DNA from: Planctomycetales bacterium
GTDB lineage: Bacteria > Planctomycetota > Phycisphaerae > SM23-33
Assembly: GCA_030612725.1 (NCBI GenBank)
Contig: JAUWNJ010000002.1
Coordinates: forward strand, 64,542 to 128,541
Length of the DNA: 64,000 nucleotides
Direction of reading: 5' to 3'
The position numbers were made by a program, and so were the translations under genes. Under the pieces are notes generated by a model. It made no database searches. It was not told where the DNA came from and worked only from the letters and a program-made list of their open reading frames with translations. Shown here in pieces: positions 3,416 to 62,707 of this stretch (positions are counted from its first letter, which is position 1; each line of letters starts with the position of its first letter).

Positions 3416-4210
3416 CTATGCTCTTTTCCTGCGGAGGATAACGCCAACCAGACCAACACCCAGAAGCGTCAGGGTCATCGGTTCGGGAACGACCTTGGCC
3501 ACAATGCTGCCACCAACGCCGTCGGTCCTTGTCAACTGCCAATCAGAGGTCTTACCACCGACAACTGTGAAGTCTGTGAAAAGCGTGGTGTCAAGAGTAC
3601 CAACCACGGACATTATCACGATTTCTGCATTTAGCACTTCGGCGTAACCACTAGCATCCAGCACGAGTCCACCGGCCAGGGTGGCATCACCGGCGACAGT
3701 AATCGTCGAAAGCTTGCTGCCATCATTGTCCGGCTTAACCCTCAGTGTTCCTGCTCCACTCCACTTGATGATCCAGTTACCGGCTACGTCAACCGTGCAG
3801 TTGGAACCAACTACTGTGAGTCCCCAATCGCCTGCACCCTCGAAGCCCCATGTCCCGGTATGATAGATACCGGTTCCGGACACCGTGACGCCGCCGGGAT
3901 TGACGGCGTTGCCGGCATTGTAGAGCTGGCTTTTCTTTGCAGTCAGCACGCCGCCTGAAGTAATCCTCACGCCCATTCCACCAAACAAATAACTGACTGT
4001 GCCTGCGTCCGCAGTAATAAGGGGATCCAGGGCGGTGAAACCATCGATTTGGGCGGCATCAGCCGCTCCCGGCACCATGCCGTTAGACCAATTATTAGGA
4101 TCGCCCCAATCTTCGCTGACATCGCCGGTCCAAATTTCATTACCAAACGCCGGTGCCGACAAAGCAACCACCGCCAGTACTGCCAATAAAATCGTTACAT
4201 TTCTCATCAT
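3416..4210 (-). CDS. PEP-CTERM sorting domain-containing secreted protein
   Basis: Signal peptide MMRNVTILLAVLAVVALSAPAFG and a C-terminal VPEPMTLTLLGVGLVGVILRRKRA (PEP motif, TM helix, Arg cluster). GGAGAG RBS upstream of the ATG at 4210. Confidence 0.75.
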   Translation of the reverse strand: MMRNVTILLAVLAVVALSAPAFGNEIWTGDVSEDWGDPNNWSNGMVPGAADAAQIDGFTALDPLITADAGTVSYLFGGMGVRITSGGVLTAKKSQLYNAGNAVNPGGVTVSGTGIYHTGTWGFEGAGDWGLTVVGSNCTVDVAGNWIIKWSGAGTLRVKPDNDGSKLSTITVAGDATLAGGLVLDASGYAEVLNAEIVIMSVVGTLDTTLFTDFTVVGGKTSDWQLTRTDGVGGSIVAKVVPEPMTLTLLGVGLVGVILRRKRA

Positions 4211-4665
4211 TTCTCTCCTCACTTCTCCCAGCGCCGGTTTTCCAACGGCACGCCCGTTAGTTGCCGGCACCATAACTAAAAAACCTTTCTTTACAAAATT
4301 ACAACCACAAAATCACAACCAGACTTGCGTTGCACCCTGCCTCCTTTCTTAAAAAGGCTCCAAAGAAACCAAACTTCAGGATATTAACTAGACTAGACTT
4401 GCGTTCTGTCTCCGCATTACCTTCCTTCGACAACTCACATGCCAAACAAGAAATGTGCTCCAATTCTCTTACGCCAGCCAGATCAACTGGCATAGGAACC
4501 GTAATCCTCATCTCAATCAACCGCGATTCTATCACGGTATGCCGAGATTGTCAAGGGATAAAACCATTTTTTTTACAATTTTTTGCGGGATTCAAAATGA
4601 ACTGAAGAGAAGAGGGAGAAAGGGGCGGGCGCTTTATGCCTTTCAGGGTCAGGCGTCTTATTTGG

Positions 4666-5484
4666 TCAGCGGCGTCGTCTGTGGTTCACTATCGCGGCGA
4701 CGCCGACGAGGACAGACGAGACGATAACGATCATCGCACCTGTCGGCAGGTCGGCAACGGCGGCAACAAGGAAGCCTCCCAGCCCGCTGACAGCCCCCAG
4801 CCCCATCGCAACACCCAATGCCCGGCCATGTCCTTTGACCAGCAGGAAGGCAGCGGCTGCGGGATTCGCCATGAGGCTGTAGATCATCAGCCCGCCGATG
4901 GTCTGAAAATTCACCGTCAGCACAGCCGCAGTGAGGACAAGGAATATCGTCCAGATGAGCGTTACGTGCACGCCGGCAGCGGCAGCGTGAAGCCGACTGA
5001 ACATTATCGCGCGCATCTCCTTGTAGAACAGCACAACGAAGGCGACCTGAACCGCCGCCACTGCCGACATCAACTTCACGTGATCCCACCGGCAGTAGAT
5101 CAGGCTGCCCCAGAGCAGGTTGCGAACGTCGTTGTCGGAGATGCCGTATTTCGGGAACAACCCGATTCCCAGAAACGCCAGTCCCATCGAGAGCGTGAAC
5201 AGCAGCCCCATCAGGACGTTAATGTTAATATGCGTAGTTTCCGGTTCCAGCAGCCCCAGGAGCATGGCTGTTACAATCGCGCCGATAAGGGCGGGGATAA
5301 GCAGCATAGGCCCGGACAGGCCGAACAAGGAGCCGAAGACAGCGCCGGCCAGGGCGGCGTGCGAGACGCAGACGCCCAGAAACGGTATCTGCATCCCGAC
5401 GACGTACACGCCGAGCATCCCCGTCGATGCTCCTGCTACCGCGCCACCGACCATTACGGGCGCCCAGAAGGTCAGGTCAATCAT
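4666..5484 (-). CDS. metal (Zn/Mn) ABC transporter permease, ABC-3 family
   Basis: Multi-TM protein typical of ZnuB/MntB. 4-nt overlap with the upstream ATPase gene. Confidence 0.85.
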   Translation of the reverse strand: MIDLTFWAPVMVGGAVAGASTGMLGVYVVGMQIPFLGVCVSHAALAGAVFGSLFGLSGPMLLIPALIGAIVTAMLLGLLEPETTHININVLMGLLFTLSMGLAFLGIGLFPKYGISDNDVRNLLWGSLIYCRWDHVKLMSAVAAVQVAFVVLFYKEMRAIMFSRLHAAAAGVHVTLIWTIFLVLTAAVLTVNFQTIGGLMIYSLMANPAAAAFLLVKGHGRALGVAMGLGAVSGLGGFLVAAVADLPTGAMIVIVSSVLVGVAAIVNHRRRR

Positions 5485-6275
5485 GCCCAGGCCCTCCCCG
5501 ATGGGATTACGGCGTGCCGACCGGTCTCGTGCACTACCACAAGGGAACTGCCGTAAAGAGAAGCGATTCGCTCATTCGTCAGCACCTCTTCAGGCGTTCC
5601 GTCGGCGGTGATTCGTCCCGCCTCCAAAAGCACCACCCGCCGGCAGCAGGGGGGGATGACCTCCAGTTCATGGCAGACAAGAACGACGGTCATGTGCATT
5701 TGGCGGTAAAGTTCTTCCATGACGGCGACGATCTGCTCACGCCAGAATAAATCGAGATTGGCTGTCGGTTCGTCGAGAATGAGCATCTCCGGCTGCTGGA
5801 CCATCGCCCGCGCGATGAGCGCCTTTCGCTGCTCACCGCCGGATAAGTCGCTGTATGCGCTACCGGTAAGTCCGCGAAGCCCGAGCCGGTCGATCCACTC
5901 ATCGACGATTCGCCAATCATCCCGGCCCAGGGGTCGGCCAAGTCCGGCGATACCGCATCGACCTATGGCGACGACCTCGCGGAGCGTCAGCGGCATCTCG
6001 CTGTGAGCGGCGAGGATTTGCGGAACGTACCCGACTCGCCGGCGAAGCCGGCTCAAACCCGCCCGGCGTACGCATTGCCCCAGCAGCCTCACCTCGCCCG
6101 CAACGCCGCGTTGAAAACCCAGGCAGCATTTCAGCAGCGTACTTTTGCCCGCGCCGTTCGGGCCAAGGATCGTAACAACTTCGCCGGCGAATACATCCAG
6201 ATGCTCGACCGAAAGGATCGTCCGCCCACCGGCGCGAACGTGCAGATTATCGATTTGTATCACCGAATCGGTCAT
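5481..6275 (-). CDS. metal ABC transporter ATP-binding protein (ZnuC-like)
   Basis: Walker A GPNGAGKST, ABC signature LSGGEQ, Walker B LILDEP. Confidence 0.9.
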   Translation of the reverse strand: MTDSVIQIDNLHVRAGGRTILSVEHLDVFAGEVVTILGPNGAGKSTLLKCCLGFQRGVAGEVRLLGQCVRRAGLSRLRRRVGYVPQILAAHSEMPLTLREVVAIGRCGIAGLGRPLGRDDWRIVDEWIDRLGLRGLTGSAYSDLSGGEQRKALIARAMVQQPEMLILDEPTANLDLFWREQIVAVMEELYRQMHMTVVLVCHELEVIPPCCRRVVLLEAGRITADGTPEEVLTNERIASLYGSSLVVVHETGRHAVIPSGRAWA

Positions 6276-17406: not shown

Positions 17407-17908
17407 TTTCTATTCCTTTTTCGACCGGGCAGTAATACCGCCGGAAACACACCAGTTCTTGCGGTATCGATAAAATCTGATCTGAAATCCTGTTTTATGA
17501 AACTCAACCAACGCATACGAATTTATCATCGACTCGACTACTGTCAAAGTGGTAATTGTCGCTTTTCTTATCCACATCAAGTCAAGCCTCGCTTGCAGAG
17601 AAACTTCCGAAGCAAAGTTTTTTTTCATTCACCGGTTATGCACAAAATTTCCACGAAGCGCGACCGTGAAAAGAAAAATTAGCAGGGATGCAGGGGATAA
17701 AGAGGATAAAACATCTTTTCAAAATTCAAACAGGTGCTTTTCTTCTTATTGAAATTCGCTTTTTATCCCGTGCATCCCCTGCATCCCTGCTAATTCTTTT
17801 CCCTGTATTCCTGCTGGTTCTTGAAAATTTGTTGTTTGACAATCGCCGTTCGAAAATCGACAATTGGCAATCGACAATCGGCAATTGGCAATTGAAGGAG
17901 TTTTTACA
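17407..17908. promoter_or_regulatory. putative oriC and dnaA promoter region
   Basis: Perfect DnaA box TTATCCACA at 17568-17576 and TTATGCACA at 17636-17644, plus 7/9 variants (TTATCCTCT rc near 17702, TTATCCCGT near 17766). A perfect 22-bp inverted repeat (17677-17698 / 17774-17795) flanks the AT-rich tract. Confidence 0.6.
17838..17895. repeat. tandem CAATYGRCAAT array in the 5' leader of the 17909 gene (family also at 19125-19160 and 46461-46504)
   Basis: gacaatcgccgttcgaaaatcgacaattggcaatcgacaatcggcaattggcaattg. Confidence 0.7.
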
Positions 17909-18571: not shown

Positions 18572-18573
18572 TT

Positions 18574-18648
18574 ATTGCGGATTGTGGATTGTGGATTGCG
18601 GATTGCACACACTCGCTGATTTGTTGGAATCCGCAATCCACAATCCGA
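18574..18648. repeat. inverted repeat built of GGATTGTGGATT units (terminator-like hairpin)
   Basis: Left arm tgcggattgtggattgtggattgcggattgc, right arm gaatccgcaatccacaatccg, about 20-nt loop. Starts 3 nt after the stop of the 17909 gene. Confidence 0.75.
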
Positions 18649-18813
18649 AATTGGTAAAAAATCGGCTCAAACCTTACACAACATTCGTGCCGAAATGCAG
18701 TGCTGGAAAAATTAGTCAGACACGATTGACTCCGTATCGTTATGATTGTAGAATACGTGCGGTTAGATGAGGGATTTGTCAGCGATTTGGTTAGATGATT
18801 ATTGAGGTAGGAA

Positions 18814-28877: not shown

Positions 28878-29152
28878 AAATCCAAAATACGAATATCGAA
28901 ATACGAAACAAATTCGAATGACCGAATTCTCAAAATCCGAAACGAACTTGGACAACCAAAATCCAAAACGAAAGCACTATGACCTTGAAGATCGAACCTT
29001 TGAGAAAACGAGCGTGTCGCTTTGGTTCAGGAAAGCACTGAACTGATGAACATTTTCGGTTCCATCCTTCGCAAGAGCGAATGATATTTTGAACATTTGA
29101 ATTTCGTATTTCGAATTTGTTTCGTATTTCGGATTTCGATATTCGGATTTAT
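28876..29152. repeat. MITE-like palindromic element, AATCCGAAA/ATACGAAA family, copy 1 (rpe|accD)
   Basis: Left arm aatccaaaatacgaatatcgaaatacgaaacaaattcgaatgaccgaattctcaaaatccgaaacg and right arm ...ttgaatttcgtatttcgaatttgtttcgtatttcggatttcgatattcggattt are imperfect reverse complements. About 150 bp core. No ORF. Confidence 0.8.
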
Positions 29153-34101: not shown

Positions 34102-34800
34102 TTAGAATTCGCACTCGAGGGCTGTTTTTTCCAGCCTGGCGAGTGTTTCGTTAACATCGGCGACTTCCAGCAGTCTTAACACCCGTTCGGGTCCGATGGG
34201 TCCGTCCGGTGGTTCAGGCGCAAGCGTGAAGGATAGTTTTCCGTCGTTCCCGCCTGACGACGATATGCCGATGCCGCCTATTTGTCCCTTGATGTCTATA
34301 AGTTTGTTTGGTTTATCATCGCCGGGGTTGCGACGGCGGGCGACTTCCCACTTTGCGGTCTGTTTCAGCGCCTCCAGACGGGCCTCTATTTGCTTCCGTT
34401 CGCAATCGGTCAATGATAATTCGTACGTTACCGCCTTGATTTTCGCCTTGGTCTTGTTCGGTAGCGGTTCGGTTTTTATCAGTTTCATTCCTTCGGGAAA
34501 CTGCTCGCCGAGGTGCAGACCCGGGTCTGACGCAGGTGAATCGGTTTTCAACTCGATTACCATCAATTCGCATCGGCTGCTTACGCCCACCGGGCGGGGC
34601 AGCGGCAGGGACAGTTTGGGACGGGGATTGAATCCTTCGGAGAATTTTATCGGTAGTCCGGCCCGAGCGGCTGAACGTTCGCACAGGCTCATCATGTTGC
34701 GGTGCGAGAGGAACCGCAAATCCCCCCCGACGGTGAACCACACCGCCCATTGCATTTTTGATTTTCGATTTTCGATTTTCGATTTTACCAGGGCGGACAT
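34102..34800 (-). CDS. DUF2344 (TIGR03936, radical-SAM-linked) family protein
   Basis: FTVGGDLRFLSHRNMMSLCERSAARAGLPIKFSEGFNPRPKLSL is the DUF2344 signature. The start may instead be the internal MQWAV at 34755; the first 15 codons run through a gattttc x4 tandem repeat. Confidence 0.65.
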   Translation of the reverse strand: MSALVKSKIENRKSKMQWAVWFTVGGDLRFLSHRNMMSLCERSAARAGLPIKFSEGFNPRPKLSLPLPRPVGVSSRCELMVIELKTDSPASDPGLHLGEQFPEGMKLIKTEPLPNKTKAKIKAVTYELSLTDCERKQIEARLEALKQTAKWEVARRRNPGDDKPNKLIDIKGQIGGIGISSSGGNDGKLSFTLAPEPPDGPIGPERVLRLLEVADVNETLARLEKTALECEF

Positions 34801-36588: not shown

Positions 36589-36598
36589 AATTAATTAG

Positions 36599-36682
36599 CG
36601 GTCAGCAATCAGCGTTCAGCAGTCAGCAATTAAGTGTGTTACTTTTTCTTTTACTGACCGCTGATTGCTGACTGCTGATTGC
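36599..36682. repeat. inverted repeat built of CAGCAATCAG units between ptsH and ptsI
   Basis: Left arm gcggtcagcaatcagcgttcagcagtcagcaat, right arm actgaccgctgattgctgactgctgattgc. The same unit family recurs at 60586-60709. Confidence 0.75.
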
Positions 36683-36690
36683 TCTTCTTC

Positions 36691-37490: not shown

Positions 37491-37506
37491 GCTTCTGCTC
37501 CTGTTT

Positions 37507-37549
37507 GGTAATTGGTAATTGGTAATCAGTAATTGGTAATTGGTAATCC
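37507..37549. repeat. tandem heptamer array (GGTAATT x6) in the ptsN 5' leader
   Basis: ggtaattggtaattggtaatcagtaattggtaattggtaatcc, 17 nt upstream of the ptsN ATG. Related arrays at 42240-42319 and 55186-55225. Confidence 0.75.
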
Positions 37550-41747: not shown

Positions 41748-42239
41748 ATGAGCGTGAACGAATATCAAGGCAAGTTGATCGCGCCGGCCGGTGCGAAGTT
41801 CGCCGTTATCGTCAGCCGGTTCAACGAGTTCATTACATCGAAACTGATGTCGGGTGCAATTGACGCGCTGACCCGTCACGGTGCAGGCGACAGCGACATT
41901 GACGTGGTATGGTCGCCGGGATGTTTCGAGATTCCGCTGTTATGCCGGCGTCTGGCAGAATCCGGAAAGTATGCCGGAGTGATTTGCCTGGGGGCGGTGA
42001 TTCGCGGCGGGACGGAGCATCACCGATACATCGCGTCGGAAGTTACCAAGGGAATAGCAGCCACATCTCTGGCAACCGGCCTGCCGTGCATCTTCGGCAT
42101 CCTGACCTGCGACACCATCGAGCAGGCGGTAGAGCGGGCAGGAACCAAGAGCGGAAACAAAGGCGCCGACGCAGCCATTGCCGCTATCGAAATGACTAAC
42201 CTGATGGGGCAACTGCCTGCCACGAATTCCACGAAGTAA
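41748..42239 (+). CDS. ribH: 6,7-dimethyl-8-ribityllumazine synthase
   Basis: [20 protein letters not shown]...[10 protein letters not shown]. Confidence 0.9.
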
Positions 42240-42319
42240 GTAATTCGTAATTGGTAATTCGTAATTCGTAAAAAAACCGATGCTCTGTTACCAATTACGA
42301 ATTACCAATTACGAATTAC
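42240..42319. repeat. 27-bp near-perfect inverted repeat of TAATTCGTAATTGG units between ribH and nusB
   Basis: Left arm gtaattcgtaattggtaattcgtaattcgta, loop aaaaaaaccgatgctctg, right arm ttaccaattacgaattaccaattacgaattac. Confidence 0.8.
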
Positions 42320-42346
42320 AAAATTCATGGAACGGAGTTTTTCGGA

Positions 42347-42763
42347 GTGATTGAGCACCACAAAGCAAGGCTGATGGCGATGCAGGGTCTTTGTTGCCTG
42401 GACGTTCAGGGCGATGACGGCATGGATGCAACGCTGGGATTTTTCCGCGACGGTAAGGAAAGCCTCGAAACCACCGACGAGGCGGAATGCATGATTCGCG
42501 GCGTTCTTGCCGAAAGGAACGAAATCGACGAACTCCTCAGCGGGCAAAGCCGGCACTGGAAAGTCGCTCGCATGGGGCTTCTGGAGCGAAATATCCTGCG
42601 GCTGGCTGTTTGGGAACTACTGACAACCCACACGCCGAAAAAAGTCGTCATCAACGAAGCAATTCGCCTGGCGAAGGAATTCGCCTCGGCTGAATCGTCA
42701 AAGTTCGTCAACGGCGTACTCGATGCAACAGCGGAAAGAATCACAGAGAATAGTAGTCAGTAG
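42347..42763 (+). CDS. nusB: transcription antitermination factor NusB
   Basis: NusB fold: ARLMAMQGLCCLDVQ...ERNILRLAVWEL. Confidence 0.9.
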   Translation: MIEHHKARLMAMQGLCCLDVQGDDGMDATLGFFRDGKESLETTDEAECMIRGVLAERNEIDELLSGQSRHWKVARMGLLERNILRLAVWELLTTHTPKKVVINEAIRLAKEFASAESSKFVNGVLDATAERITENSSQ

Positions 42764-42932
42764 TAAAATCCGAATATCGAAATCCGAAATCCGAAACAAT
42801 ATCGAAATACGAATGGCCAAAATTAGAAACACCATTTTCAAGTTGTCGTATAGTTTGAAACATTTGAAAATTCGGATTTTGAATTTGTTTCGGATTTCGG
42901 ATTTCGGATTTCAATATTCGGATTTAAGTACC
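42764..42932. repeat. MITE-like palindromic element, AATCCGAAA/ATACGAAA family, copy 2 (nusB|ftsY)
   Basis: Left arm aaaatccgaatatcgaaatccgaaatccgaaacaatatcgaaatacgaatggccaaaat, right arm aaaattcggattttgaatttgtttcggatttcggatttcggatttcaatattcggattt. Starts immediately after the nusB stop. Confidence 0.8.
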
Positions 42933-42965
42933 ACCTATTAAACACCACACGCGGAGCGTGAATAA

Positions 42966-46455: not shown

Positions 46456-46504
46456 GTCTTCAATTTCTTTTCAATTGGCAATTGAAAATCGGCAATTGGC
46501 AATC

Positions 46505-47644: not shown

Positions 47645-47854
47645 AGCGTATCTGAAAGAATGAACCACAAAGGACACAAAGGACACAAAGAAAAACTTTT
47701 TTTCCACAGCAATGCAGGCTGGGCCGACCTGTCTGCCGACAGGCAGGTAGGCCCACCTTGATCCTACTATTTTTTTATAATTCGTGCAATTCGTGGATTA
47801 AATTCGTGTAACCTGTCCCTTCGGGATTCGTGGTACGAAGCAGGAGATAAACCA

Positions 47855-53387: not shown

Positions 53388-53531
53388 CTGTGTTCGCGTT
53401 TGCGCGCGCAAACGCGAACGTAAAAATCGGAGGAAATGAAAATTCCAAAAAAACTTTTCCCAAGGCCACCAAGGACTTATGGCGTCGCTATCCGTTTTGT
53501 GTTCGCGTTTGCGCGCGCAAACGCGAACGCA
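53388..53531. promoter_or_regulatory. two copies of a 33-bp direct repeat, each containing a perfect 28-bp palindrome, upstream of the PEP-CTERM protease gene
   Basis: gttcgcgtttgcgcgcgcaaacgcgaac at 53392-53419 and 53501-53528, 109 bp apart. They lie 136 and 245 nt upstream of the protease start. Confidence 0.6.
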
Positions 53532-53711
53532 AAAGTTAATACGGAGAGAATAGGGACTAGGGACTTGGGACTAGGGACTTGGAAAAAAGAAACAGATGGG
53601 CCGTTTAGGCAAGATGGGCAAAATAGGCAATGGCGGATTTTTTAAAATGGGCGTAAAAATGACACTAAAATACGCAAATCTATGCACGCCAAGGAGTTAT
53701 GGGTTTTGCAA

Positions 53712-53820
53712 TTTTTCCCAATTGTTCCGAATCGTTCCCAATCGTTCCGAATCGTTCCCAATCGTTCCCAATCGTTCCCAATTGTTCCGAATTGTTCCGT
53801 TTCGTTCCGTTTCGTTCCAC
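53712..53820. repeat. tandem array of about 11 copies of the 10-mer ATCGTTCCCA (variants ATTGTTCCGA, TTCGTTCCGT)
   Basis: Unit boundaries were read directly from the sequence. No spacers, so this is not CRISPR-like. Confidence 0.85.
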
Positions 53821-59018: not shown

Positions 59019-59036
59019 ATGAAATCATTACGCAAA

Positions 59037-59200
59037 ATTCGAATATCGAAATCCGAAATTCGAAACAATATCGAAATACAAATGACCAAAATCCGAAACA
59101 TAAATACACAAACATTTTCAATGTTCTGTGTTTGGGACATTAGAAAATTCGGATTTTGAATTTGTTTCGTATTTCGAGATTCGTATTTCGGATTTAAAAA
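59037..59200. repeat. MITE-like palindromic element, AATCCGAAA/ATACGAAA family, copy 4 (mrdA|rodA)
   Basis: Left arm aaattcgaatatcgaaatccgaaattcgaaacaatatcgaaatacaaatgaccaaaatccgaaac, right arm aaaattcggattttgaatttgtttcgtatttcgagattcgtatttcggattt. Internal hairpin aacatt-ttc-aatgtt. Confidence 0.8.
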
Positions 59201-61181: not shown

Positions 61182-62069
61182 GTGTCTGATTCAAAAAAAA
61201 TAACATTTGCGAACCGACTTGCCGACGACGTGCGTGTAACGCACGAAATGCTGAAACTACCGGACGGGCAGGAGACGCCGGTGTTGCATCATCATCCTTC
61301 ACAGAAGGTAGGCGTTCCGGTTTTGTACGTTCATGGTATCCAGTCTCATCCCGGATGGTTCACCGGTTCCGCCCAGATGCTGGCACGCGCCGGCAGCGAG
61401 GTTTTTCAGGTAACACGCCGAGGAAACGGAACATCGCCAACCCGAAGGGGCGATGCCGCCTCGGCTGAACAACTCCTCGGCGACGTCAATGCCGCGGTAA
61501 AGTATGTTCTGGAACAAACGGGGAATAAACGCCTCGCACTTCTGGGCATCAGTTGGGGCGGGAAACTGCTGACGGCATACGCCCTGCGGGCCGACGTGGA
61601 TAATATTGATTCACTGACGCTTGTCGCTCCGGGCCTGAAACCGCTGGTGGATGTCTCGATAGCGACCAAACTGGCCGTACTGTTGGCCTTGATTTTCAGG
61701 CCCGGGACGTATTTCAAAATTCCGCTCAATGACGTGTCTCTTTTTACGGACAATCCTGAAATGCGTGAGTATTTGCGTAACGACCCACACCGTCTTCATC
61801 GCGCCACTGCGCGATTTCTGTTCGCGTCAGCCATGATTGACCGGATTATTGCTCGCGCGGACGAACGGACGCTGAAGGTTCCGACGACGTTAATCCTGGC
61901 CGGTCGGGACCGCATCATCGACAACGAATCCACCTGCGATCTGATGGAATGGTTGGCTGACAGACCGGTGCGAGTTCGCCTGCTTGATGCTACTCATACC
62001 ATAGAGTTCGAGCGGGAAAAGGGGGCCTTCTACGAGATACTTTGTCAGGCCGTTGGGGAAGAAAGATAG
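61182..62069 (+). CDS. alpha/beta hydrolase (lysophospholipase-like)
   Basis: Nucleophile elbow GISWGG and an HG oxyanion motif (VLYVHGIQSH). Confidence 0.8.
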   Translation: MSDSKKITFANRLADDVRVTHEMLKLPDGQETPVLHHHPSQKVGVPVLYVHGIQSHPGWFTGSAQMLARAGSEVFQVTRRGNGTSPTRRGDAASAEQLLGDVNAAVKYVLEQTGNKRLALLGISWGGKLLTAYALRADVDNIDSLTLVAPGLKPLVDVSIATKLAVLLALIFRPGTYFKIPLNDVSLFTDNPEMREYLRNDPHRLHRATARFLFASAMIDRIIARADERTLKVPTTLILAGRDRIIDNESTCDLMEWLADRPVRVRLLDATHTIEFEREKGAFYEILCQAVGEER

Positions 62070-62088
62070 CGGGATTGTAATCCTGCTT

Positions 62089-62700
62089 AAAGAAGAAGAA
62101 AAGGAATAGCAGGATTACAGGGATTACCGGATTACAGGGATTTTTATTTTTGCTGAAAAAAGAAGAGGAAAAAGAAAGGCAGGGGGATTGCAGGGATTGG
62201 TTTTAATTCTCAAATCTTCTTACTTGCAAAGAAGACGAGCCGAAATTTATCAGCAGCGCAACCAGCAACCTGGAGGCTTTTAAGTAACTGATAGTCTGTG
62301 CTCGGTGCTCCTTAATCGTATCGACAACGGCCTTCAGTTCGACAATAACCTTTCCTTCAACAACCATGTCAGGCCTGTATGTACCACAAAGCATTCCCTC
62401 GTAAAAAACTTCGAATTCACGCTGTGACTCAAATGAAATTCCTGTGAGCATCAATTCCTTGGAAAGCGCTTTGTGATATGTCGATTCGGTGAAACCGGCG
62501 CCAAGCGTTCCGTGAACTTCATGAGCGGCCCCGATAATGTTATAAGTAAGTGCGTTAATGGGATCGTCAGCGTCCAAACCACCCCGAACACCAACAACAC
62601 CCCCGACTTCTTTTTCTGTTTCTTTTGTTCCTTTTAACAAAATAAAAATCCCTGTAATCCGGTAATCCCTGTAATCCTGCTATTCCTTTTCTTCTTCTTT
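62089..62700. mobile_element. cassette: GxxExxY gene bounded by a perfect 62-bp inverted repeat, abutting the 3' end of tRNA-Ser
   Basis: IR-L at 62089-62150 is exactly the reverse complement of IR-R at 62639-62700 (aaagaagaagaaaaggaatagcaggattacagggattaccggattacagggatttttatttt). Extra GGGATTG/CAGGGATTGG motifs at 62071-62086 and 62180-62199. Confidence 0.7.
62203..62640 (-). CDS. GxxExxY family protein (PD-(D/E)XK-like)
   Basis: YNIIGAAHEVHGTLGAGFTESTYHKAL (the GxxExxY motif), then ...VELKAV...LINFG. TTG start immediately adjacent to IR-R. Confidence 0.85.
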   Translation of the reverse strand: MLKGTKETEKEVGGVVGVRGGLDADDPINALTYNIIGAAHEVHGTLGAGFTESTYHKALSKELMLTGISFESQREFEVFYEGMLCGTYRPDMVVEGKVIVELKAVVDTIKEHRAQTISYLKASRLLVALLINFGSSSLQVRRFEN

Positions 62701-62707
62701 TCTTTAA

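Follow-up and report, generated by a model that had tools for sequence, protein, structure and literature searches.

A gene of the GxxExxY family in a 64,000-nucleotide stretch of DNA from a Planctomycetales bacterium (contig JAUWNJ010000002.1 of assembly GCA_030612725.1, positions 64,542 to 128,541; hereafter the window) lies in a small cassette next to a tRNA gene, and the cassette is bounded by two arms that are exact reverse complements over 62 nucleotides (nt). We found that such inverted arms, built as arrays of short tandem units, are a hallmark of the GxxExxY family across bacterial phyla and archaea. The interest of the finding rests on this family-wide hallmark; the window locus is one instance of it, unusual in its long perfect arms and its tRNA neighbour. 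Cassettes occur at differing loci in related genomes, where they decay to pseudogenes, truncations and solo arms, and both arms and their units evolve in concert. The reading we favour, to which we give about an even chance, is that of a persistent nuclease cassette, selfish or semi-domesticated, with arms that would be its own cognate DNA sites, in the manner of RAYT genes and their repetitive extragenic palindromic (REP) sequences. No description of the arrangement of arms and arrays around GxxExxY genes was found in Rfam or in the literature searched.

The family-wide sample comprised 80 GxxExxY loci from GTDB species representatives. These were the best tblastn matches and not a random sample, and they came from Planctomycetota, Chloroflexota, Bacteroidota, Candidate Phyla Radiation groups, Acidobacteriota, Alphaproteobacteria and three archaeal metagenome-assembled genomes (MAGs), with MAG taxonomy labels used as deposited. 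For each gene, an inverted-repeat score was obtained by aligning the 250 nt upstream to the reverse complement of the 250 nt downstream. Random positions with equal geometry gave a mean score of 17.8 and a maximum of 31, and 347 other open reading frames (ORFs) of the same loci gave a mean of 18.6, with 95th and 99th percentiles of 26 and 41.6. Among 75 distinct GxxExxY genes, 59 scored above 26 and 26 scored above 41.6. The control ORFs with high scores include three Y1_Tnp (RAYT-type) genes with REP-like flanks, and two 23S_rRNA_IVP four-helix-bundle genes are also among the highest. RAYT is a known system of nuclease and repeat and so acts as an internal positive control; its recovery by the same screen places GxxExxY beside it.

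The arms nearly always consist of about three tandem units (three in 74 of 104 arrays), with a period of 9 nt in 159 of 236 cases and the consensus CACRGATTW. Unit variants among the loci include CACGGATTA, CACAGATTT, CGCGGATTA and CACGAATTT; the variant in the window is CAGGGATTA and that in Bacteroides finegoldii is CACAGAGGA. Arrays occur at a density of 2.17 per kb within 300 nt of the genes and of 0.098 per kb elsewhere in the same loci, a 22-fold difference, and shuffled loci yielded 12 arrays in 570 kb. The archaeal loci L041, L045 and L048 have arrays as well. GxxExxY genes are often present in multiple copies per genome, every paralogue having its own arm variant that is matched in both arms. 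Rfam 15 contained no match to the arms: in the window region just the tRNA reached the gathering score, two weak sub-threshold matches both overlapped the tRNA, and 19 typical loci gave no match at the gathering threshold.

In the window, the minus-strand order is tRNA, a gap of 6-7 nt, 5' arm, ORF and 3' arm. The features of the locus, together with one hairpin elsewhere in the window, are as follows.

61182-62069, plus strand: alpha/beta-hydrolase gene, convergent on the cassette, with its last codons and stop overlapping the terminal motif.
62060-62088: outer terminal motif of the element, AGAAAGATAGCGGGATTGTAATCCTGCTT, read from the sequence.
62089-62150: left arm of the 62-nt inverted repeat, on the 3' side of the gene, with an array of GGATTAC-type units at 62107-62142.
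62151-62202: purine-rich spacer and degenerate inner array, immediately past the stop codon when read on the gene strand.
62203-62640, minus strand: nuclease gene, 145 amino acids (aa) from TTG 62640, with the stop codon TAA at 62203-62205.
62639-62700: right arm of the 62-nt inverted repeat, on the 5' side of the gene, with a unit array at 62647-62682.
62701-62707, minus strand: spacer between the tRNA 3' end and the arm.
62707/62708-62793, minus strand: tRNA-Ser(CGA), found by ARAGORN and Rfam, directly upstream of the nuclease gene on the same strand.
17674-17798: gene-less hairpin (z = -8.4) whose arms (TTAGCAGGGATGCAGGGGAT...) are the closest likeness to the cassette arms within the window.

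An earlier note on this DNA had described a perfect 62-bp inverted repeat around a single GxxExxY gene with a TTG start at the right arm, lying between the hydrolase gene and tRNA-Ser(CGA), with no integrase or transposase. We confirmed this description. Positions 62089-62150 are the exact reverse complement of 62639-62700, and dinucleotide-preserving shuffles of the window gave no match. The only credible ORF between the arms is that at 62203-62640, whose TTG start (62640-62638) shares 2 nt with the right arm, and the checked genes adjoining the cassette, which encode the hydrolase, a DUF5658 protein and a CpaF-type ATPase, showed neither an integrase nor a transposase domain. The note had put the tRNA 8 nt away; adjacency holds, and the discriminator base is actually 6-7 nt from the arm. 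It had overlooked that the arms are made up of tandem 8-9-nt units of the GGATTAC type.

Pairing of the arms extends inward, ungapped, to 94 nt at 84% (62089-62182 with 62607-62700), and on the outer side, if a 5-nt indel is allowed, arm complementarity (TTAAAGA) comes within 2 nt of the tRNA end. The TTG start of the nuclease gene reaches into the right arm, within which the likely ribosome-binding region also falls; a second in-frame TTG at 62577 would give a possible 124-aa product. At the opposite end, the hydrolase stop codon TAG (62067-62069) sits within the conserved terminal motif AGATAGCGGGATT of the element, and 62076-62086 pairs with 62109-62119 in a small local hairpin (z = -5.9). 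A likeness of the outer boundary to DnaA boxes, parS or CsrA sites, judged by eye, was dropped as unsupported. A promoter scan of the 62701-62707 spacer gave no promoter-like site, which makes co-transcription with the tRNA likely, and tRNA-Ser would be the likely source of transcription into the cassette.

The encoded protein is a clear member of TIGR04256 (GxxExxY; 1.2e-38, 132 bits against a cut-off of 35) and of PF13366 (PDDEXK_3; 2.3e-37, 128.4 bits against a cut-off of 22), matching nearly the full length of both models. It keeps the sequence GAGFTESTY, and the motif G-x-x-E52-x-x-Y55 as well as D91, E101 and K103 are intact; E52, D91, E101 and K103 are invariant in 35 homologues and Y55 is conserved in at least 90%. 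The fold is restriction-endonuclease-like alpha/beta, with a nuclease core. Many family members of about 250-290 aa contain two tandem GxxExxY domains (P0186, P0188, P0192-P0195 and others), suggesting that the single-domain proteins act as dimers. The ratio dN/dS for the nuclease is 0.26 between the window and its closest relative, L001, and 0.05 between loci L010 and L024. Judged from its catalytic residues, dN/dS, fold and the tandem fusions, the window protein looks functional. The GxxExxY / PDDEXK_3 family comprises 13,515 clusters at 50% identity, and the literature searched reports neither a function nor flanking arrays for it. A sequence search for solved structures of the window protein found none, defence-system and phage protein libraries gave no match to it, and profile and library searches detected no recombinase or transposase domain in the cassette, for which Pfam shows PDDEXK_3 alone.

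The closest relative of the locus, L001, is a metagenome scaffold from the European Nucleotide Archive. Its GxxExxY protein is 91% identical and its gene order is that of the window: CpaF, tRNA-Ser, cassette, hydrolase, DUF5658 and FtsW. The two differ by a dS of 0.14 in the nuclease gene, 0.25 in the hydrolase gene and 0.17 in the DUF5658 gene. The perfect inverted repeat of L001 is 64 nt long and has five differences from the window arm, all five of which are mirrored in the partner arm, which argues that the arms are held identical by concerted evolution and not by recent insertion. An assembly error or chimera, or a chance inverted repeat, was considered because assembly errors can yield perfect long repeats. 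We regard this as having next to no probability, given that the independent assembly L001 has the same architecture at the same locus with its own mirrored substitutions, that the architecture recurs in dozens of unrelated assemblies and that the shuffles gave no match.

More distant relatives were retrieved through the hydrolase gene. In L084 (hydrolase 81% identical), the last ~45 codons and the 3' arrays survive; in L088/L089 (78%), what remains is the terminal hairpin with a portion of the outer arm, and synteny breaks beyond them; and in L086 (79%), solely TAGCGGAATTACAGG is left. L083 (84%) has no trace of the element and a different hydrolase C-terminus. The terminal motif is conserved after the hydrolase in L001, L084 and L088/L089, and wherever a trace of the element remains, the stop codon of the hydrolase gene comes from the element motif. 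The long outer arm, common to the window, L001 and L084 and in part to L088, is on that account old. L084, which has lost the 5' half of the cassette, has a perfect hairpin of 16 bp (GTTGACTGGCCGAGTT...AACTCGGCCAGTCAAC; 5335-5385) immediately after tRNA-Ser, possibly acting as a substitute terminator.

Related cassettes are present at a second locus in two other genomes, with 86-90% aa identity to the window protein. L084 and L002/L003 belong to the same genome, GCA_030642005.1, which thus has a truncated copy at tRNA-Ser and an intact one at opp. The L002/L003 cassette (90% aa identity) lies between two ATPase genes of an opp-type ABC-transporter operon, in the same orientation, and in L004, from a second species, the cassette at the same opp site is a pseudogene with a premature stop at the motif Y and decayed arms. 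Copies across the tRNA-Ser (window, L001, L084 remnant) and opp (L003, L004) loci are 83-90% identical at the nucleotide level. The arms of L003 are simpler, at 44 nt and 86% complementarity, and AGATAGCGGGATT forms the outer end of both of them too. The degenerate inner array of the window (62178-62200, GGCAGGGGGATTGCAGGGATTGG) is, by alignment, the positional homologue of the simple 3' arm in L003 and L004, which makes the long outer arm a later product, an inverted copy of the 5' arm and leader. The L084 remnant is 90% identical to the intact copy of its own genome and 86-88% identical to its positional orthologues; this mosaic look is weak and we do not rely on it.

These comparisons bear on how the earlier note had interpreted the locus. 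It had attributed the perfect arms to recent mobility, which is contradicted by the orthologous, occupied site in L001 at ordinary dS (0.14-0.25), by the 5/5 mirrored differences and by remnants in relatives whose hydrolases are 78-81% identical; recent insertion is thereby ruled out as the cause of the perfect arms. It had proposed a comparison of relatives for an empty tRNA-Ser site, and what we found was an occupied site in L001, remnants in L084, L086, L088 and L089, and no trace in L083. Its view of a minimal mobile cassette survives in part: the discrete arms, the one-gene unit and the related copies at another locus stand, and recent mobility falls. The tRNA as an integration hotspot did not survive. 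A tRNA is the neighbour at none of the 80 other GxxExxY loci, only this locus and its orthologues being tRNA-adjacent, and neither an integrase nor a second copy of the tRNA 3' end is present. The other reading offered by the note, a nuclease gene within a hairpin-forming regulatory element, keeps some probability at the RNA level.

Concerted change is also seen at the level of single units. In the Prevotella orthologues L039 and L052, whose arms surround a gene at about 4001-4378, six of six units differ by the same base (CACGGATT vs CACGAATT; GGATT to GAATT). Co-evolution with a binding protein would account for this, and so would homogenisation through slippage and template switching.

The cassettes usually occupy short intergenic spacers and are co-oriented with their neighbours. 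By crude ORF calls, the upstream neighbour is co-directional with the cassette in 67 of 78 cases and the downstream neighbour in 55 of 67. The outer arm end often holds the stop codon of the upstream gene, and the next ATG follows about 5-30 nt past the 3' arm. Examples are leuC/cassette/leuD in L010 and L024, radA/cassette/FAD-dependent gene in B. finegoldii, and cassette/ruvA/four-helix-bundle cassette/ruvB in L005. In this last operon, the 23S_rRNA_IVP gene between ruvA and ruvB (4990-5575) is flanked by inverted arrays of another unit (CAGTAGCCGG / GGTAGTCGG), with the GxxExxY cassette just upstream of ruvA, and L024 has a second four-helix-bundle gene (2356-2718) after leuD. The RAYT-type Y1_Tnp genes with REP-like hairpin flanks lie in L080 (6489-7055), L070 (7339-7845) and L064 (5922-6383).

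Gene-less hairpins of cassette-type units occur in L011, L013, L058, L065 and L076, and nested in L062. A search of metagenomes with the arm pattern found further ones in L091, L093 and L099, with the gene present in none of nine pattern matches, and the same pattern in viral contigs gave one chance match, inside a DnaB-like helicase gene. L001 has a gene-less element at 1990-2230 whose arms are near-identical to those of the cassette 4 kb away. Situated between genes for a protein kinase and a TadE protein, it has one array in forward and two in reverse orientation, and each reverse array is followed by a pyrimidine-rich tail as in the cassette 3' arm; the window ends just short of the corresponding region. 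In L062 (365-575), an array hairpin of the CACGGATTA type is nested in the loop of a hairpin of the CCACAGATTAAC type, and a sister of the outer hairpin, without insert, lies at 2723-2828.

The favoured reading takes the cassette as a class in which a gene for a PD-(D/E)XK nuclease of about 125 aa is tightly bracketed by inverted arrays of about three 9-bp CACRGATTW units, and these arrays would be double-stranded DNA binding or cleavage sites of the nuclease itself. The nuclease is proposed as the cognate protein because it is the only factor common to all the hosts. With inverted arms, both sides of the gene offer one and the same duplex motif, the layout of DNA sites such as transposon ends and RAYT flanks. 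Binding of the nuclease to the arrays at either end would probably involve a dimer or a larger oligomer, in keeping with the tandem-fusion proteins, and the window gene, presumably promoterless, would be expressed by read-through from tRNA-Ser. As with RAYT and REP (or REPIN) sequences, a vertically persistent and constrained gene would be accompanied by cognate repeats whose occasional spread or exchange may or may not include the gene. Rare repair or template-switch events triggered by the nuclease could copy or exchange the array hairpins, again with or without the gene, and the same process, template switching or gene conversion between arms, might keep the 62 nt identical.

An alternative places the element at the RNA level, like an intervening sequence (IVS) of 23S rRNA. 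The cassette would be co-transcribed with tRNA-Ser, or at other loci with host operons, and its arms would pair into a long stem with the cassette as the loop. RNase III or another double-strand-specific RNase would cut it out, and the stem would mask the signals for translating a nuclease that may be toxic, namely its ribosome-binding site and TTG. Several features of the window agree with this: the gene is on the tRNA strand, 6-7 nt downstream and with no promoter-like site found; the TTG and likely ribosome-binding site lie in or at the arm; and the predicted fold pairs the arms over more than 60 bp (minimum free energy -290.5 kcal/mol, z = -10). The predominant co-orientation of cassettes (67/78 upstream, 55/67 downstream) is in keeping with it too, as are the 23S_rRNA_IVP genes in L005 and L024, likewise bracketed by inverted arrays within operons. 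The IVS of 23S rRNA is an element of about 430 nt with terminal inverted repeats and a small ORF, and is excised by RNase III (PMC4990558). We nevertheless judge an RNA element of this kind unlikely. In 1480 paired columns, the arm mismatches comprise 26 sense G:U, 36 A:C and 97 others, so that sense-strand G:U is not enriched, and arm-specific mismatches are kept between the orthologues L010 and L024 despite a dS of 1.6. Pairing alone would leave the unit sequence and the 9-nt period shared across phyla unexplained, and a gene-less hairpin has nothing to insulate. Arrays are present in archaea too, and to our knowledge most archaea lack RNase III.

The lack of a G:U excess, the unit and period common to different phyla and the conserved mismatches point to constraint on the DNA sequence rather than on RNA pairing alone, as far as sequence comparison can indicate. 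An RNA-binding protein would meet two different sequences in the inverted arms. Roles at the RNA and DNA levels are compatible.

Several observations weigh against the favoured reading. About 20% of the sampled GxxExxY genes have no detectable arms, and recognition of the arms by the protein is inferred from sequence. We know of no strand-transfer activity of a hydrolytic PD-(D/E)XK nuclease alone. The phage families searched were almost free of GxxExxY, and among 72,556 plasmid records GxxExxY occurred in 8, all of them large non-mobilizable replicons. Paralogues within L035, L065 and L072 share 44-84% aa identity and are thus old, ruling out recent paralogue bursts there. Mobility, if any, is rare, given the age of the paralogues and the stability of orthologous cassettes over saturated dS: the cassettes at the same site in L010 and L024 have a saturated dS of 1.6, and the nuclease dN of 0.086 is lower than the 0.26 of leuD; the protein is under strong constraint and passes mainly by vertical descent. 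One pair of occupied and empty sites came to light. In B. finegoldii a cassette occupies the spacer from radA to the FAD-dependent gene, and a contig with the same flanking genes and a 98% identical RadA has none there. The two differ over the whole spacer, the empty site being an unrelated spacer with no clean excision scar. No target-site duplication is visible at this sole pair, and the outer ends of the arms (TTAA.., TTAGCC.., GATAGC..) belong to the inverted repeat, so that short duplications are indistinguishable from it. Such a whole-spacer difference resembles allelic replacement by recombination and not transposition. Finally, many hairpins in the window have unrelated 7-nt units and no gene, which indicates that array hairpins can exist without GxxExxY.

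The 'empty' spacer itself (L111, 3869-3948) contains two direct CACTGATAAAT repeats and may be a degenerate array; the FAD-dependent gene downstream is split into two ORFs.

PD-(D/E)XK homing endonucleases are known, I-Ssp6803I being an example, and the whole-spacer replacement without target duplication in Bacteroides would suit a free-standing homing endonuclease cassette that cuts cassette-free alleles and is copied in by recombination, the arms being secondary. The exact fit of cassettes between conserved genes, from stop codon to start codon, and the occupied leuC/leuD site in both L010 and L024 would suit it as well. Homing endonucleases, however, require no inverted arrays and leave no gene-less hairpins, and the dS of cassettes at the same site is saturated like that of their neighbours, indicating vertical descent with no recent invasion. 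We find this explanation improbable.

Another possibility is that the arms are ordinary host hairpins (REP-like mRNA stabilisers or terminators) without link to the nuclease. The gene would land or survive in their loops, and the identity of the arms would be a by-product of template switching, an established mutational process at quasi-palindromes. The nested hairpins of L062 show that loops tolerate insertions, and at least seven other intergenic array hairpins in the window have units of 7-8 nt and no gene. Those whose arms are tandem arrays lie at 17674-17798, 18572-18660, 28878-29150, 36593-36683, 42227-42332, 42751-42940 and 59035-59194. These seven enclose no gene and have mostly a 7-nt period (AAATCCG/CGGATTT, GTAATTC, GTGGATT, CAGCAAT, GCAGGGAT); three of them, folded as DNA, gave z = -6 to -8.6. 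On the other hand, these window hairpins are built from different units, whereas one unit consensus and one period recur beside GxxExxY genes in unrelated phyla and archaea, GATT-type arrays are 22-fold denser beside the genes, and paralogues in one genome have differing variants, each matched in both arms. Host hairpins of this kind are in our view a quite unlikely explanation, if a somewhat better one than homing.

The window contains further repeats. Single tandem arrays of 7-9-nt units occur in intergenic DNA at 34754-34786, 37505-37548, 46472-46503, 53551-53582, 47666-47690 and 47773-47810; their units (ATTTTCG, TTGGTAA, CAATTGG, TAGGGAC, CACAAAGGA) resemble the STRR heptamer repeats of cyanobacteria, and one of the arrays, AATTCGTGCAATTCGTGG, is of the inverse CACGAATT type. 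A 10-nt tandem repeat (TTCCCAATCG / GGGAACGATT) in 8-10 copies at 53715-53818 is near-identical to one at an unrelated locus, L003 7699-7768. Two copies of a 37-nt GC-rich palindrome (TGTGTTCGCGTTTGCGCGCGCAAACGCGAACG), REP-like and about 70 nt apart, lie at 53389-53425 and 53495-53531.

Among known systems, RAYT/REP comes nearest to the way the element works, and the intervening sequence comes nearest to it in appearance. In RAYT/REP (REPIN) systems, as here, a small nuclease-type gene lies between inverted short repeats, the repeat also occurs without the gene in intergenic spacers, and the gene is vertically inherited under purifying selection. The element is not RAYT/REP because it has no HUH transposase: RAYT is an HUH/Y1 transposase and the protein here is a predicted hydrolytic PD-(D/E)XK nuclease. 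The repeats of RAYT are single REP palindromes, in contrast to arrays of about three 9-bp direct units, and GxxExxY differs further in being often multi-copy, each copy with its own arm variant.

The IVS of 23S rRNA shares a size of about 0.4-0.6 kb, terminal inverted repeats, a long stem, one small ORF and a place in a stable-RNA transcription unit, and the four-helix-bundle genes in L005 and L024 are bracketed inside an operon like the cassette. The IVS is sporadically distributed and then vertically inherited (PMC4990558). The location and the ORF differ, so the element is not a 23S intervening sequence: it follows a tRNA and does not lie in helix 25 or 45 of 23S rRNA, its ORF is of another family, and its arms are unit arrays whose mismatches carry no RNA-pairing signature.

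Inverted ends of repeated short motifs set tightly around one gene recall insertion sequences (IS), miniature inverted-repeat transposable elements and the ends of Mu and Tn7, as do the gene-less derivatives, nested copies, truncated remnants and copies at other loci. The element is not an IS, since the cassette encodes no recombinase of the DDE, HUH, serine or tyrosine type and target-site duplications were not seen; its copies are moreover old and not near-identical. A promoterless single gene by a tRNA 3' end, with inverted repeats that are imperfect in most family members, is likewise reminiscent of tRNA islets and integron cassettes. With no integrase, no duplicated tRNA 3' end, no att site (attC or attI) and no cassette array, it is neither a tRNA island nor an integron cassette.

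We tentatively propose, as a possibility that we hold with some doubt, that GxxExxY genes and CACRGATTW arrays form an undescribed class of selfish or commensal DNA elements in Bacteria and Archaea. The nuclease would recognise the end arrays and propagate or maintain intergenic hairpins with or without the gene, making the class a second, mechanistically different counterpart of RAYT/REPIN. The four-helix-bundle IVS cassettes possibly follow the same logic.

For annotation, the cassettes matter in that they overlap the stop codons of neighbouring genes, sit within operons and mark sites of rearrangement, as in L088/L089. The finding suggests an origin for some of the REP-like intergenic hairpins of Planctomycetota, Chloroflexota, Bacteroidota and archaea, and it links three families of small genes bracketed by inverted repeats, namely RAYT, the 23S-IVS four-helix-bundle genes and GxxExxY. 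A very large family annotated without function gains a testable DNA target, and with it the question of whether the nuclease binds or cuts the arrays.

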